A stretch of 64,000 nt of DNA, from positions 3,946 to 67,945 of the forward strand of contig JBBTUL010000011.1 in the NCBI GenBank assembly GCA_038063755.1, read 5' to 3'. The notes under the pieces are model-generated. The model was given only the letters and a program-made list of their open reading frames with translations. It searched no databases and had not been told where the DNA came from. A program made the translations under genes and the position numbers. The DNA comes from Patescibacteria group bacterium (GTDB lineage: Bacteria > Patescibacteriota > Minisyncoccia > UBA6257 > 2-01-FULL-56-20). This document shows positions 15,469 through 30,369 of the stretch, piece by piece (positions within the stretch are counted from its first letter, which is position 1; each line of letters opens with the position of its first letter).

Positions 15469-15560
15469 GGTTGATATTCACCAGTTGCCCGACATTTGTC
15501 GGGCACTTTAATTTTGTTATACTAGGGGCAGAAGCTTGAAAAGACAGAAAGGACTATGCG

Positions 15561-25495: not shown

Positions 25496-26818
25496 ATGAG
25501 TGATCAGGAGAAGAGAATGGATAAAATTGTGAGCCTTGCGAAACGCAGGGGTTTTGTATTTCCCGGTTCCGAGATTTACGGAGGTTTGCGGGGAACTTGG
25601 GATTACGGGCCTTTGGGGGCATTACTCAAGAAGAACTTTAAAGATGAATGGTGGAAGGAGATGGTGCAATTGCGAGACGATGTTGTAGGTATCGATGCCG
25701 CAATCATGATGAACCCGAAAGCGTGGGAAGCTTCCGGTCATGTAGAAGCTTTTACCGATCCGCTCGTCGAGTGCAAAGTTTGCCACCAGCGTTTTAGAGC
25801 AGACAAGCCTGACGAAATAAAAGAGCACGAAGGAACACACAAGGGAAAGAAAGTTGAATGGACCGATCCGCAGAAATTCAATCTTTTGGTACGGGCATAC
25901 TTAGGAGTGCTTGAGGGAAAAGAATCGGAAATATTCCTGCGTGGAGAAATCACGAACGGTGTACATGTGAATTTTAAAAATATCGTGGACTCCACACGCA
26001 TCAAGATACCTTTCGGCGTCGCGCAAATCGGAAAAGCGTTTCGTAACGAAATCACTCCCGGTAATTTTATTTTCCGGAGCCGAGAGTTTGAGCAGGCGGA
26101 ACTTCAGTTCTACGTGAAACCGGAAGAAGAAGAGGGGAGAAAGTGGTTCGAATATTGGAAACAGAACAGGATGGATTGGTTTTTGAAAATCGGATTCAAC
26201 GAGTCTCATTTGCGCTTCCGTGATCACGAACCGGATGAACGCGCCCACTACGCGCGTTTTGCAACAGACATTGAATACAACGCCCCCTGGGGATGGGACG
26301 AGATGATGGGAATTCACCACAGAGGAGATTGGGACCTAAAGAGGCATCAGGAATATTCTGGCGTTGATATGTCATACAATGACCCACAAACCGGAGAAAA
26401 GTTTATTCCGTGGGACATCGAAACGTCTTCCGGCGTTGACCGACCGATCCTATTCCTCCTCCTTGACGCGTACACGGAAGATGGCGAGCGTATTTATTTG
26501 AAGCTGAATCCAAGACTTGCACCATACAAGGCCGCGGTCTTTCCTCTCTTGGCGAATAAGCCGGAGCTTGTGGAGCTCGCGAAAAAGATTCGGGACGATT
26601 TAAAAAAGAATTTTATGATTGCCTGGGACGACAGAGGAAACATCGGAAAACGCTATTACGCACAGGACGAGATTGGGACTCCTTACTGCATTACTATTGA
26701 TTTTCAGACGCTTGAAGACGGTACCGTGACCGTCCGAGACAGAGATTTCGCAAAACAAATACGCAAACCGATAGAGGAGCTTGCGGCATACATCTCCGAG
26801 GCAGTTCGCGGGTCGTAA
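25496..26818 (+). CDS. glyS: Glycine--tRNA ligase, class II alpha2 (archaeal/eukaryote-type)
   Basis: FVFPGSEIYGGLRGTWDYGPLG and later class II motifs. 440 aa. Confidence 0.9.
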   Translation: MSDQEKRMDKIVSLAKRRGFVFPGSEIYGGLRGTWDYGPLGALLKKNFKDEWWKEMVQLRDDVVGIDAAIMMNPKAWEASGHVEAFTDPLVECKVCHQRFRADKPDEIKEHEGTHKGKKVEWTDPQKFNLLVRAYLGVLEGKESEIFLRGEITNGVHVNFKNIVDSTRIKIPFGVAQIGKAFRNEITPGNFIFRSREFEQAELQFYVKPEEEEGRKWFEYWKQNRMDWFLKIGFNESHLRFRDHEPDERAHYARFATDIEYNAPWGWDEMMGIHHRGDWDLKRHQEYSGVDMSYNDPQTGEKFIPWDIETSSGVDRPILFLLLDAYTEDGERIYLKLNPRLAPYKAAVFPLLANKPELVELAKKIRDDLKKNFMIAWDDRGNIGKRYYAQDEIGTPYCITIDFQTLEDGTVTVRDRDFAKQIRKPIEELAAYISEAVRGS

Positions 26819-26827
26819 AAGAAAGAT

Positions 26828-26857
26828 CCCCAGTATATCACATATGATATACTGGGG
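26828..26857 (+). promoter_or_regulatory. Perfect inverted repeat CCCCAGTATATCA-cata-TGATATACTGGGG ending 3 nt before the murA ATG
   Basis: 13-bp arms, 4-nt spacer. Lies between the glyS stop and the HTH-MurA start. Candidate operator for the fused XRE HTH, or an SD-sequestering hairpin. Confidence 0.5.
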
Positions 26858-26859
26858 AT

Positions 26860-28383
26860 ATGAAAGATTTATCCGAACAGCAGAAGATCGGGCGTTTTAT
26901 TGCGGATCTTCGGGAGCATGCACACATGACGCAGGGGGATTTGGCAAAAGCACTCTCTACAAGCCAGAGTGCGGTTGCGCGGATGGAGGCGGGAGAGCAA
27001 AACTTCTCGACCGAAATGCTCGCGAAAGTTTCCCGCGCGCTTGGGCGGGATATCGTTACACTTTCTTCCGGGGCGATGAACTTTCGCATCGAAGGAGGGA
27101 AGAAGCTTTCCGGAAAAGTCACTACCAACACCTCAAAGAATTCTGCGGTTGGGCTTTTATGCGCCTCGCTCTTAAATAGAGGAAGGACTGAGTTCCGCGA
27201 TATGCCTCGCATAGAAGAGGTGAATCGGATCGTCGAGGTGCTCATCTCAATTGGCGTATCTATAAAATGGCTAAACGAAAACGATCTCGAAATAATCCCG
27301 CCGAAACGATTTTCAATGGATAATCTTAACGTGCAGGCGGCGATGAAGACGCGAAGTGTTCTGATGCTTCTGGGACCGCTCATACATGAGCTTCAGAACT
27401 TCGTGATTCCCTATCCGGGTGGATGCAAGCTTGGTCGGAGGTCGGTTCGCCCGCATCTTTTTGCGCTGCAGAAGCTTGGCGTAAAGATCGGTGCCTCGAA
27501 GGGCAATTATCATGTTTCGGTAAAGAAGTTAAAGCCAGCGAACGTTGTCCTTTACGAGGCGGGAGATACTGTCACCGAAAATGCCCTCATGGCGGCCGCG
27601 CGTATTCCTGGAGTGACGACCCTCAAGTTTGCATCGGCAAACTACATGGTTCAGGATGTTGCTCGCTTCATTGAGGCGCTCGGCGTGAGGATTGATGGAA
27701 TCGGGACATCGACGCTTGTCGTCCATGGGAAGCAGGACATCCAAAAATCGGTTGTTTTTTATCCAAGCGAGGATCCAATCGAATCAATGCTTTTCCTTTC
27801 TCTTGCCGCGACGACGAACTCATCAATCGTGATTGAGCGATGCCCGATTGATTTTTTGGAGCTAGAACTTTTGAAATTGGAAAAGATGGGGTTCAAATAT
27901 AAAATCCTTCGACGTTACAAATCAAAGAATGAGATTACGAATCTTGTGGATATCAAAACATTTTCGTCAAAACTTATTGCGCTTGAAGAGAAGATTCATC
28001 CGCTTCCTTCCGCTGCCGGCATAAATATAGACAATTTACCGTTTTTCGTGCCAGTCGCGGCCTGCGCGAAGGGAACAACGCTTATCCATGACTGGGTGTA
28101 TGAGAATCGAGCTATCTATTATATGGAGCTTCAAAAGCTCGGAGTAAATATCATCTTAGCTGATCCGCATCGAGTCTACGTTGAGGGACCAACCGAGTTT
28201 CGGGCGTCCGAGGTGGTGTGCCCTCCGGCTCTCCGCCCCGCAGTTATTATACTTATCGCTATGATTGCTGCTCCTGGTGTTTCGATTTTGCGAAATGTTT
28301 ATTCGATCAACAGAGGGTACGAGGACTTGGTAAACCGCTTGAACAGGCTCGGAGCAAGGGTTGAGATTTTGCACGGGATATAA
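26860..28383 (+). CDS. murA: UDP-N-acetylglucosamine 1-carboxyvinyltransferase (MurA) with N-terminal XRE-type HTH domain
   Basis: Residues ~5-65 form a canonical Cro/C1 HTH (IGRFIADLREHAHMTQGDLAKALSTSQSAVARMEAG). The remaining ~430 aa align with MurA (KLSGKVTTNTSKNSAVGLLCASLL...). Confidence 0.88.
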   Translation: MKDLSEQQKIGRFIADLREHAHMTQGDLAKALSTSQSAVARMEAGEQNFSTEMLAKVSRALGRDIVTLSSGAMNFRIEGGKKLSGKVTTNTSKNSAVGLLCASLLNRGRTEFRDMPRIEEVNRIVEVLISIGVSIKWLNENDLEIIPPKRFSMDNLNVQAAMKTRSVLMLLGPLIHELQNFVIPYPGGCKLGRRSVRPHLFALQKLGVKIGASKGNYHVSVKKLKPANVVLYEAGDTVTENALMAAARIPGVTTLKFASANYMVQDVARFIEALGVRIDGIGTSTLVVHGKQDIQKSVVFYPSEDPIESMLFLSLAATTNSSIVIERCPIDFLELELLKLEKMGFKYKILRRYKSKNEITNLVDIKTFSSKLIALEEKIHPLPSAAGINIDNLPFFVPVAACAKGTTLIHDWVYENRAIYYMELQKLGVNIILADPHRVYVEGPTEFRASEVVCPPALRPAVIILIAMIAAPGVSILRNVYSINRGYEDLVNRLNRLGARVEILHGI

Positions 28384-28408
28384 AAGCGTATTGGTTGACA
28401 GATAGCTC

Positions 28409-28756
28409 TTGGGAGCGCTAGGCTCATTAAAGACATTTGAAGAAAGCGAGGATCTTATGTGGAGTCAGGAGTCCGCCATCCTTCTCAATTTCAAAGATAT
28501 TCCAGGACGGAGGCGCTGGGAGCTGGCACTCCTTTTCGCCTTTGTGAGACAAGTGAAAGTTTTTTTTCAAGAGGGCAGGGGGGATCTGGTGGTGACGAGG
28601 GTTCAATCGGTTCCTGTTTTTTCACCATCGACTGCTCGTTTGGCGAGAGATCGATGGATGGAAAGACTTTCAGAAATTGAAAACCTCGGCCTAGAAGCCG
28701 ATGAACGCGAGCTTCTTCAAAGGGCGATTCAGCAAATCGTCCCGTACTGCTCGTAG
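28409..28756 (+). CDS. Hypothetical protein
   Basis: ORF with no recognisable motifs. A better RBS (GAGGAT) precedes the internal ATG at 28458. Confidence 0.4.
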   Translation: MGALGSLKTFEESEDLMWSQESAILLNFKDIPGRRRWELALLFAFVRQVKVFFQEGRGDLVVTRVQSVPVFSPSTARLARDRWMERLSEIENLGLEADERELLQRAIQQIVPYCS

Positions 28757-28770
28757 CCGACAGAAATTAT

Positions 28771-28804
28771 AATGCTTCGACCATGGTCGAAGCATTTTTT
28801 GTTT
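28771..28804 (+). terminator. Rho-independent terminator (AATGCTTCGACC-atg-GTCGAAGCATT + T6)
   Basis: 11-12-bp perfect stem followed by TTTTTTG. Confidence 0.7.
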
Positions 28805-28996
28805 ACATGGTTTTGGGCGGACCCACTGAATGCACCGTTAAAAATGAAAAGAAGGCAGTGTTTGCCTCCTTGGATGTTTGACTGCAGGCTTACCGGCTCT
28901 TCGTTAGCGATCCTGCGAGTGATACGACCGCTAATGCCAGGTAAAGGAAAAAAATATAGACGTCAGAGAAAAATCCTGCTGCATCGCCGTTTCCGC

Positions 28997-29221
28997 TCAT
29001 ACGTCATCCTTCCACTTCAGAATCGCGGAAACGATGCTGATCACGCTCAGCGTAAGTAGCAGCGATAAACCGCAGGGTGCGCCAACGAACAAAAGAAGGT
29101 TTTCTGAGGTTAATTTTCCCTGTGCCAGTGTCTCGAGGAGACATGCCACGTAGAAGAAAGAAAGAAAAAGACCGATGAACAGTAACCCGCACCCGACGAA
29201 AAGATGGTCCCTCGCGCTCAT
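28997..29221 (-). CDS. Small two-helix membrane protein (74 aa)
   Basis: The only plausible ORF in the 28.8-29.36 kb gap. Two hydrophobic helices. AAGGGTAAGGAA lies upstream of the ATG on the minus strand. Confidence 0.3.
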   Translation of the reverse strand: MSARDHLFVGCGLLFIGLFLSFFYVACLLETLAQGKLTSENLLLFVGAPCGLSLLLTLSVISIVSAILKWKDDV

Positions 29222-29325
29222 TCCTTACCCTTTCCTTGAAGATGCTGAACGCATCATAGCATAGCAAAGCCTTTTGTCAATCTCTTTCTGCCAGGATTTT
29301 CTGTCGCCCAGAAACAATTCCGAAA

Positions 29326-29354
29326 TTGACTTTCAATCTTAAATCACCTTAAAT
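29326..29354 (+). promoter_or_regulatory. Sigma70-like promoter TTGACT-N17-TTAAAT for mreB
   Basis: The -10 ends 7 nt before ATG 29362 (leaderless arrangement). Confidence 0.45.
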
Positions 29355-29361
29355 ACATATA

Positions 29362-30369
29362 ATGTTTTCAAGAAAGATAGGAATCGATCTTGGTACCGCG
29401 AATACCGTCGTTTTTGTTCCCGGACGAGGTTTTATTATCAACGAGCCAACAATCGTCGCGCTTTCAAAACCAGAAAACACCGTTCTTGCGGTGGGGGTCG
29501 AGGCAAAAGAAATGATCGGAAGAACGCCCGAGGAGATCGTCGCGTATCGTCCGCTTAAAGATGGCGTCATTGCCGACTACTATATTACCAGAGCGCTTCT
29601 TACGTATTTCATTGCGAAAGCATCGCATTGGATGAATCCTTTCAAGCCGGACGTTGTGATATCGGTACCCGCCGGAATTACACAGACCGAGCGAAGAGCT
29701 GTTGTGAATGCTGCGAGGGAGGCCGGAGCGAGAAACGCGTTTATTGTACGCGAGCCAGTTCTTGCGGCGCTTGGGGCAGGGATACCGATAAATGCTCGTT
29801 CGGGGCATATGATCATAAATATAGGAGGTGGTACGTCAGAAGTTGCGGTTATCGCACTCGGAAACATTGTTTCTTGGACCAGCCTTCGTGTCGCCGGAAA
29901 TAAGTTTGATCGCGCGATCAGCGATTATGTAAAGAAAAAGTATGGCTTGGCGATTGGCGAGCAAACCGCGGAAAAAGTTAAGATCGAGATCGGGTCAGCG
30001 CTTCAGGTCAAGCAGAAGAAGGAATTCGAACTGCGCGGACGAGATTTAGTGAGCGGTCTTCCGAAGGATATCGTAATCAATTCAAGCGAGATTGCGGAGG
30101 CTCTAAACCCGCTTCTTATGGAAATTGCCGACTCGGTGCAGACGGTATTCAATAGCACGCCACCGGAGCTTGTCGCGGATATCATGGAGAAGGGAATTAT
30201 TCTTTCTGGAGGAAGCGCACAGCTCAATAATCTTACAGACTTTTTTGAGCAGATATTCCGTGTTCCTTCTTACGTTGCCGAAGATCCGCTATTTTGCGTT
30301 GCTCGCGGCACAGGCCTTATTTTAAATCACCTCGATGCATACAAGCGGACTTTGCTAAACAAGAGATAG
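29362..30369 (+). CDS. mreB: Rod-shape determining protein MreB
   Basis: IGIDLGTANTVVFV phosphate-1 motif. 335 aa actin-like ATPase. Confidence 0.9.
   Translation: MFSRKIGIDLGTANTVVFVPGRGFIINEPTIVALSKPENTVLAVGVEAKEMIGRTPEEIVAYRPLKDGVIADYYITRALLTYFIAKASHWMNPFKPDVVISVPAGITQTERRAVVNAAREAGARNAFIVREPVLAALGAGIPINARSGHMIINIGGGTSEVAVIALGNIVSWTSLRVAGNKFDRAISDYVKKKYGLAIGEQTAEKVKIEIGSALQVKQKKEFELRGRDLVSGLPKDIVINSSEIAEALNPLLMEIADSVQTVFNSTPPELVADIMEKGIILSGGSAQLNNLTDFFEQIFRVPSYVAEDPLFCVARGTGLILNHLDAYKRTLLNKR

Follow-up and report, generated by a model that had tools for sequence, protein, structure and literature searches.

Several metabolic enzymes, known as trigger enzymes, carry a fused DNA-binding domain and repress their own genes. 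Examples are PutA (ribbon-helix-helix), BirA (winged helix) and NadR, and DNA binding is coupled to proline and the redox state in PutA and to biotinyl-AMP in BirA. The fosfomycin target MurA performs the first committed step of peptidoglycan synthesis. To our knowledge, the known controls of MurA act after transcription, namely feedback by UDP-N-acetylmuramic acid (UDP-MurNAc), ClpCP/ReoM-dependent proteolysis and activation by CwlM. Here we analysed a stretch of 64,000 nucleotides (the window) from contig JBBTUL010000011.1 of a Patescibacteria group bacterium, in which one murA gene encodes a Cro/C1 (XRE) type helix-turn-helix (HTH) domain followed by MurA (HTH-MurA), with a perfect inverted repeat directly in front of its start codon. 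Like PutA, BirA and NadR, HTH-MurA combines a metabolic enzyme and an N-terminal putative DNA-binding domain in one polypeptide, together with a palindromic candidate operator overlapping its own promoter. Unlike these proteins, it uses an XRE/Cro domain, and the enzyme is MurA, for which no DNA-binding form was found in the literature covered here.

Two groups of XRE-type repressors and the canonical enzyme are the other points of comparison. It is textbook knowledge that antitoxins repress their own promoters by way of a palindrome within them. HTH-MurA resembles the HigA-type antitoxins, the partners of Gp49/HigB toxins, in having a homologous HTH with a near-identical helix and an identical 18-bp operator between -35 and -10. 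It differs from them in that no toxin gene is adjacent and the HTH is fused to a housekeeping enzyme; because of the missing toxin gene, HTH-MurA should be an antitoxin-type autorepressor rather than an antitoxin. The repressor cI of phage lambda is an XRE-type protein that is made at PRM from a leaderless mRNA, with a promoter overlapping its own operator. HTH-MurA shares with it the XRE family, a predicted leaderless transcript and the operator-promoter overlap, whereas its operator is single and not tripartite, there is no sign of positive autoregulation or cooperativity, and its transcription start is a predicted one. In comparison with canonical MurA (E. coli, E. cloacae), it was found that the fold is the same, the catalytic residues are aligned and the gene is likewise associated with murB and mreB, but the identity is only ~26%, the score falls below the TIGR01072 cut-off and there is a 75-residue N-terminal HTH extension. 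A full-text literature search, with many subscription papers outside its scope, returned no description of an HTH-MurA fusion or its operator and nothing on leaderless promoters in Patescibacteria. One candidate paper for a described fusion turned out to concern an unrelated fosfomycin-resistant MurA.

From the comparison of loci described below, we consider it likely that the palindrome is a promoter-embedded operator and that HTH-MurA acts through it to repress murA itself, as well as any adjacent murB. The original prediction, made from the letters of the window, had proposed an operator bound by the HTH of the enzyme itself, giving autoregulation; this proposal gained support from the conservation of the site, its co-occurrence with the fusion and its presence in toxin-antitoxin operons, all of which are comparisons of sequences.

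Co-occurrence of the palindrome with the HTH-murA fusion

The inverted repeat has 15-nt arms that are 100% complementary and a CATA loop, and its last base lies directly before the ATG at 26860 (Table 1). It had been described in the original prediction as a perfect repeat with 13-nt arms ending 3 nt before the ATG; its existence was confirmed, but the arms are 15 nt long and no gap separates them from the start codon. No other perfect inverted repeat of the 64-kb window is as long, and the chance expectation for such a repeat, calculated from base composition, is ~6e-4. The conserved functional core appears to be the inner 18 bp. In the 70-nt stretches preceding the orthologous genes, the family consensus TATATCAyATrTGATATA of this core was seen almost everywhere; in Actinomycetota it often reads TATCTCAyATrTGAGATA. 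Further copies of the operator, as members of a regulon, were sought in the window and rejected: the second-best match reaches 11/14.

The comparison was based on 80 loci of ~9.5 kb each, mostly from Patescibacteria and some from Actinomycetota. Each position of each locus was scored against the degenerate 18-mer, and a locus was regarded as testable when its upstream sequence was intact. In 68 of the 74 testable fused loci, the 18-mer was the unique best match of the whole locus and lay within ~250 nt upstream of HTH-murA, for which the chance probability is 1e-94, given ~3% expected per locus. The distance from the 18-mer to the start codon peaked at 8–13 nt in the fused loci. It was exactly 8 nt in close relatives, and four close relatives of the window (L201–L204) all had 18/18 matches.

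Four unfused MurA genes of the same subfamily were found among the 80 loci, and they had neither the palindrome nor an HTH gene nearby. A search with an unfused member gave 8 further unfused loci, none of which was above background, with at most 12/18 matching upstream. These unfused orthologues are 66–74% identical in the MurA part. With L201–L204 included, 73 of 79 fused murA loci have the palindrome, as against 0 of 12 unfused ones (Fisher p = 6e-11, where the unfused genes may come from few clades, so that the events are not fully independent). A survey of related genomes for co-occurrence of palindrome and fusion had been suggested in the original prediction, and it came out on the side of the proposed operator. 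The unfused genes (L205–L209, L053, L060) mostly lie in a tight operon of ftsZ, a Pyr_redox_2 flavoprotein gene and murA, without a promoter of their own, and loss or absence of the HTH seems to go with embedding in this cell-division operon.

These counts bear on a different reading of the site, in which the palindrome serves another trans-acting regulator, such as a stand-alone XRE protein or an antitoxin, and the HTH of MurA has a role other than DNA binding, e.g. docking to MreB in the way of RodZ. RodZ binds MreB through an XRE-type HTH, mreB neighbours HTH-murA in 16 of the 80 loci, and stand-alone HTHs of the same subfamily with the same site do exist (see below). But the palindrome goes with the fusion in the counts above, no second HTH gene of the subfamily was found in the fused loci, and conservation within the HTH domain is highest in the recognition helix. 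Moreover, unlike RodZ, HTH-MurA showed no match to the RodZ-type HTH_25 of Pfam at E ≤ 0.01, and its HTH is directly followed by the soluble MurA domain. We regard an outside regulator as very improbable.

Several variations around the palindrome were observed. At L022, L024, L035 and L049, insertions of 100–150 nt separate the operator from the start codon; those of L022 and L035 are flanked by inverted repeats (..cccgt.. / ..acggg..), and similar motifs occur at L024 and L049. The insertions may represent mobile hairpin elements of small size, or else structured leaders. In most Saccharimonadia loci (L041, L043, L046, L050, L051, L061), an extra half-site (TTATATCA or TTATACCA) lies just upstream of the -35 element, and in at least three of them (L041, L043, L051) glyA, encoding serine hydroxymethyltransferase, is divergent from the palindrome.

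The same site in toxin-antitoxin operons

A reverse search was made from the DNA site. An exact scan of metagenome contigs for TATATCAYATRTGATATA gave at least 120 loci, and a hidden Markov model of the HTH subfamily, built from 76 MurA HTH domains, was run on the open reading frames (ORFs) of the 120 loci. Among the matches listed, a gene of the HTH subfamily lay at most 520 nt away at 33 of the 75 sites with at least 700 nt on both sides; HTH-MurA fusions adjoined ~27 of the 120 sites; stand-alone HTH proteins of 90–150 aa occurred at ~18 of 120; and 12–13 of these stand-alone HTHs were the second gene of an operon that runs from the palindrome through a Gp49/HigB-like toxin (PF05973) to an HTH_3 antitoxin. 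Toxin-antitoxin operons sharing the exact palindrome were found at L106, L107, L133, L167, L169, L170, L180, L189, L192 and others. In their promoters TTGACA is 0–4 nt upstream of the palindrome, which sits between -35 and -10.

The recognition helix of the antitoxins (GTKQSNIARMETGQQNF) is nearly identical to that of HTH-MurA (KTSQSAVARMEKGEQNF), and one antitoxin aligned to the MurA HTH with 41% identity (E 5e-17). That an independent gene family shares both helix and site is the strongest indirect support for the HTH of MurA reading the palindrome. HTH and operator appear to form a module common to HTH-MurA and the Gp49/HigB-type antitoxins, which was perhaps borrowed from the latter.

It was also considered whether the metagenome sites without an HTH gene form a regulon, but their neighbours were heterogeneous and no recurrent family was found. 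At L063, a 192-aa P-loop kinase gene of the AAA_33 family (681–1298) lies between a perfect 18/18 operator and HTH-murA, and its product matches Zeta_toxin weakly, below the threshold (E 0.0035). Phosphorylated UDP-N-acetylglucosamine (UDP-GlcNAc) is the means by which zeta toxins poison MurA.

Overlap of the palindrome with the predicted promoter

Inspection of the right arm indicated that it is at the same time an extended -10 element (Table 1). The -10 hexamer and the ATG of murA are 6 nt apart (GGGGAT). No recognisable -35 was found for murA in the window, nor was there a Shine-Dalgarno sequence at usable distance from its start, the GGGG being only 2 nt from the ATG. With the extended -10 element six nucleotides before the ATG, the murA mRNA is probably leaderless, with transcription starting at the A of the ATG, and the GGGG would not be a ribosome-binding site. 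The original prediction had placed either a promoter or a ribosome-binding site under the repeat; the former is consistent with the extended -10 in the right arm, while the latter had to be given up.

This arrangement is not confined to murA. TGATATA(A/C)T followed after 6–7 nt by a start codon was also observed at ORFs 5413, 8855 and 45678 (+) and 38820 (-) of the window, and most genes in the window have no upstream Shine-Dalgarno sequence. Extended -10 promoters yielding leaderless mRNAs seem to be a common mode in this genome. A 37-nt leader sets apart the otherwise similar promoter element at 15515–15527 (TGTTATACTAGGGG); this near-match to the palindrome was considered as a further operator and rejected as just one more extended -10 promoter, TGTTATACT.

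Many more distant loci have a -35 element (TTGACA or TTGCAA) immediately ahead of the palindrome, whose right end is overlapped by the -10. The -10 of the Actinomycetota loci (TANNNT) starts at the last two bases of the palindrome and is followed after 6–7 nt by ATG or GTG; the half-site TGAGATA is not a -10 element there, yet the same layout is kept. From these layouts, the putative operator would cover the spacer and the -10 region, with its centre near -17 to -20.

The overlap raises the question of whether RNA polymerase alone could account for the palindrome. According to such an explanation, the two arms are back-to-back extended -10 elements (TGATATAnT on each strand) of a bidirectional, leaderless promoter that was inherited from an ancestral divergent murB-murA pair, and the left arm in the window is a relic or an antisense promoter into glyS, the upstream gene. 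The right arm does match the generic leaderless promoter of this genome. In addition, murB adjoins HTH-murA in 17 of the 80 genome loci, being divergent and directly upstream in 13 and nearby in another arrangement in 4. The palindrome lies 1–32 nt from the murB start in 6 metagenome loci, in 3 of which it makes up nearly the whole intergenic region, and at L042 the left arm reads TGATATAAT, followed after 6 nt by the ATG of murB on the minus strand. Altogether, ~24 of 69 loci have a divergent gene whose start is no more than 60 nt from the palindrome. However, the full palindrome is also kept in at least 22 loci with a co-oriented upstream gene, as in the window, and its spacing and the central yATr are conserved. 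A promoter read by RNA polymerase alone also fits poorly with the persistence of the palindrome in Actinomycetota, with its absence from every unfused murA, and with the occurrence of the same site between -35 and -10 of unidirectional toxin-antitoxin promoters whose genes encode a homologous HTH. We consider the pure promoter unlikely.

RNA hairpin or DNA site

As an RNA, the repeat would form a strong 15-bp hairpin, and the 101-nt segment around it has a minimum free energy of -32.2 kcal/mol (z = -4.3). The hairpin would start 7 nt past the stop codon of glyS and, on read-through transcripts from glyS, would abut the AUG of murA. It was thus considered whether it terminates or stabilises the glyS transcript, or blocks murA translation through the GGGG and the AUG. 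In the original prediction, an RNA hairpin hiding the GGGG as ribosome-binding site had been offered as the alternative to an operator.

An intrinsic terminator on the plus strand was rejected, because the stem is present but the U-tract is not: the tail ATGAAAGATT is not U-rich, and a terminator scan flagged only the minus-strand orientation as terminator-like. The gene upstream of the palindrome varies by locus (glyS, murB, mreB, glyA and others), while the palindrome is constant. Three relatives (L201–L203) with protein identities of 89, 82 and 80% share the identical 18-bp core, but none of them retains the outer CCCCAG/CTGGGG pairing, so that selection for the longer hairpin was also rejected; in L203, glyS and the palindrome are separated by a GC-rich terminator of its own. 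The stem is conserved as a sequence, without compensatory changes (covariation), and the region 26300–27300 had no Rfam match at E ≤ 1. A stem that is conserved in sequence between drifting flanks is the signature of a protein-binding site.

Sequestration of a Shine-Dalgarno sequence found no support either. The GGGG is too close to the ATG to serve as one, most genes in the window do without, and the hairpin lies outside the predicted murA transcript. On this promoter layout an effect of the hairpin on murA would be excluded, and the alternative of the original prediction was not upheld. Read-through from glyS might still be hindered by the extended hairpin of the window, but there is no indication that such a role is under selection. 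Overall, an RNA hairpin is a very improbable explanation of the conserved repeat.

The HTH-MurA protein and its distribution

A fusion in one protein could result from an assembly error or a frameshift joining two genes, and the original prediction had named this as one outcome that would speak against it. We found that the fusion is genuine and widespread. The gene is a single ORF without frameshift, and an identical protein, known from a metagenome-assembled genome of Patescibacteria, is recorded on 3 contigs. All of the best 120 homologues (65–89% identity) contain HTH_3 and EPSP_synthase within ~505 aa, which ruled out an artefact. At least 570 homologue-coding stretches were found in species-representative genomes (570 among the first 600 candidates), and the architecture recurs in thousands of proteins of Patescibacteria and extends to some Actinomycetota. 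In the databases these proteins are simply named MurA. A homologue search with the HTH domain alone gave 6 fragments only and was uninformative.

The order of an XRE-type HTH and a full-length MurA within one ORF, as originally read from the translation, was borne out by Pfam, NCBIfam and the aligned catalytic residues. The HTH domain (PF01381) scored 46.5 bits with HTH_3 (cut-off 23) and 40.7 bits with HTH_31 (cut-off 27) of Pfam. Among the NCBIfam models, the MurA subfamily model NF006873 was matched above its cut-off (301.2 bits vs 297), whereas the equivalog model TIGR01072 was not (295.3 bits vs 392.7), suggesting that the enzyme part is a divergent MurA subfamily. The recognition helix TSQSAVARME (family form TSQSAVARMExGxQN) is nearly invariant.

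An AlphaFold2 model was made from an alignment of 63 homologues, with a mean predicted local distance difference test (pLDDT) score of 87.8. It shows N-terminal helices at aa 6–20, 25–31, 36–43 and 51–61, with pLDDT mostly 81–89 across aa 11–50, and a low-confidence linker at aa 62–72 between the HTH and the soluble MurA fold. The HTH is thus predicted to be tethered to MurA through a flexible linker of ~10 residues. Against solved MurA structures, the model gave target-normalised TM-scores of 0.85–0.91 at ~26% identity, and MurA ranked above NikO and AroA. A fusion of an HTH with MurA is in no solved structure of the PDB.

All of the E. cloacae MurA residues K22, N23, R91, C115, R120, D305, R371 and R397 were aligned in HTH-MurA by HMMER, with K93, N94, R165, C189, R194, D391, R417 and R459 as the equivalents, and these eight are invariant in the 63-sequence family alignment. 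Around Cys189 and E. cloacae Cys115, the aligned sequences are PGGCKLGRRSVRPH and PGGCAIGARPVDLH, respectively. From these alignments, HTH-MurA would be a catalytically competent MurA.

Homologues in cultured Actinomycetota include those of Nostocoides japonicum T1-X7, Ornithinimicrobium tianjinense CGMCC 1.12160 and Allokutzneria sp. NRRL B-24872. The Actinomycetota proteins (L064–L080) are 64–69% identical to those of Saccharimonadia (L041, L043, L046, L050, L051, L061), and their identity to other Patescibacteria is lower (52–58%). Saccharibacteria live as epibionts on Actinomycetota, so that this similarity may point to genes having passed between the lineages of host and epibiont. The actinobacterial HTH-murA genes are presumably second murA copies. 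The gene context of the actinobacterial locus L080, where genes of fatty-acid oxidation and SDR genes are the neighbours, was uninformative.

Gene neighbourhood

The features of the locus are given in Table 1.

Table 1. Coordinates of the HTH-murA locus in the window (position 1 is the first letter of the 64,000 nt)
Feature	Position	Strand	Remark
glycyl-tRNA synthetase gene (glyS), upstream, co-oriented	25496..26818	+	stop codon 7 nt before the inverted repeat
left arm of 15-nt inverted repeat, ATCCCCAGTATATCA	26826..26840	.	outer 8 nt lineage-specific
core 18-bp palindrome, TATATCA-CATA-TGATATA = TATATCACATATGATATA	26834..26851	.	sole 14/14 match in the window
right arm of 15-nt inverted repeat, TGATATACTGGGGAT	26845..26859	.	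perfect complement of the left arm
predicted extended -10 element TGATATACT, hexamer TATACT at 26848-26853	26845..26853	+	TGn + hexamer
ATG start codon, also predicted transcription start	26860..26862	+	7th base after the -10 hexamer; spacing-based inference
HTH-murA coding sequence	26860..28383	+	507 aa plus stop; ORF list, Pfam, NCBIfam
Cro/C1 (XRE) helix-turn-helix, aa 14-66	26899..27057	+	Pfam HTH_3, E 3.7e-12
MurA enolpyruvyl transferase domain, aa 78-494	27091..28341	+	Pfam EPSP_synthase (PF00275), E 1.9e-42
Cys189 codon	27424..27426	+	aligned with catalytic Cys115 of MurA, the fosfomycin target
mreB, ~1 kb downstream	29362..30369	+	Pfam MreB_Mbl, E 1.4e-128

With the murB and mreB neighbours counted above, HTH-murA is genomically associated with these peptidoglycan and cell-shape genes. 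The order glyS-HTH-murA was seen in the closest relatives only. No Gp49-like toxin ORF adjoins murA in the window according to the ORF list and Pfam, and no toxin genes were found among the neighbours of the fused loci, which showed recurrent cell-wall neighbours instead.

The gap between murA and mreB (28384–29361) contains a 115-aa ORF (28409–28756) without a Pfam match, followed at 28771–28796 by a perfect 26-bp palindrome, AATGCTTCGACCATGGTCGAAGCATT, and a T-run; this palindrome looks like a terminator on both strands. A 74-aa membrane-like ORF is on the minus strand (28997–29221), with a strong promoter-like site at 29280–29253. In the relatives L003, L015 and L203, mreB is 50–75 nt after murA, and in L202 an SDR gene is at that position.

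Proposed mechanism

In the proposed mechanism, two HTH domains of HTH-MurA would occupy the half-sites TATATCA and TGATATA, which are 4 bp apart. As the predicted core promoter contains the site, its occupancy should exclude RNA polymerase. Peptidoglycan synthesis would then be under negative autoregulation at its first committed step, by which the level of the enzyme would be held steady. In the many relatives with a divergent murB, the same palindrome would allow co-repression of the first two steps: the two arms can act there as two leaderless promoters, and binding of a dimer would silence murA and murB alike.

It may further be asked whether HTH-MurA is a metabolite-sensing trigger enzyme, in which ligand-induced closure of MurA modulates DNA binding. 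On binding UDP-GlcNAc, phosphoenolpyruvate or the feedback ligand UDP-MurNAc, MurA would undergo its large domain movement from open to closed and thereby change the availability or pairing of the tethered HTHs, and the occupancy of the operator between murB and murA would then report the pool of peptidoglycan precursors. Such a homeostat could have been assembled through capture of an antitoxin-type HTH together with its operator. This extension is a tentative one, and we hold it to be doubtful.

Several points count against autorepression by HTH-MurA. Promoter function alone explains half of the palindrome, and in the roughly one third of loci with a close divergent gene on the left, the left arm could be a second -10. 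Six fused loci have no clear site. Among the matches listed, 42 of the 75 full-context metagenome sites have no HTH-subfamily gene nearby, which means that the 18-mer is not exclusive to this HTH subfamily. A specificity code was tried and rejected: inside the fusions, the helix TTQSA pairs with the operator variant TATAGCA, but antitoxins with TTQSN keep TATATCA. Being phylogenetically confounded and contradicted by the antitoxins, this correlation (helix S to T, operator T to G) was not used as evidence. Canonical MurA is monomeric as far as known, and we infer DNA binding, dimerisation, repression and the transcription start of HTH-MurA from comparison.

Implications

The findings document probable leaderless, extended -10 promoters in this Patescibacteria genome, and an HTH-plus-operator module that appears to be common to toxin-antitoxin systems and a housekeeping enzyme. 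With a defined 18-bp site, a defined protein and homologues in cultured actinomycetes, the proposed autorepression is directly testable. The small genomes of Patescibacteria are understood to encode few regulators. If the proposal is true, binding of MurA to its own promoter, which is often shared with murB, would represent a new and very economical form of cell-wall homeostasis. If metabolite sensing also holds, HTH-MurA would serve much of the Patescibacteria, and some Actinomycetota, as a one-protein homeostat for the synthesis of cell-wall precursors.

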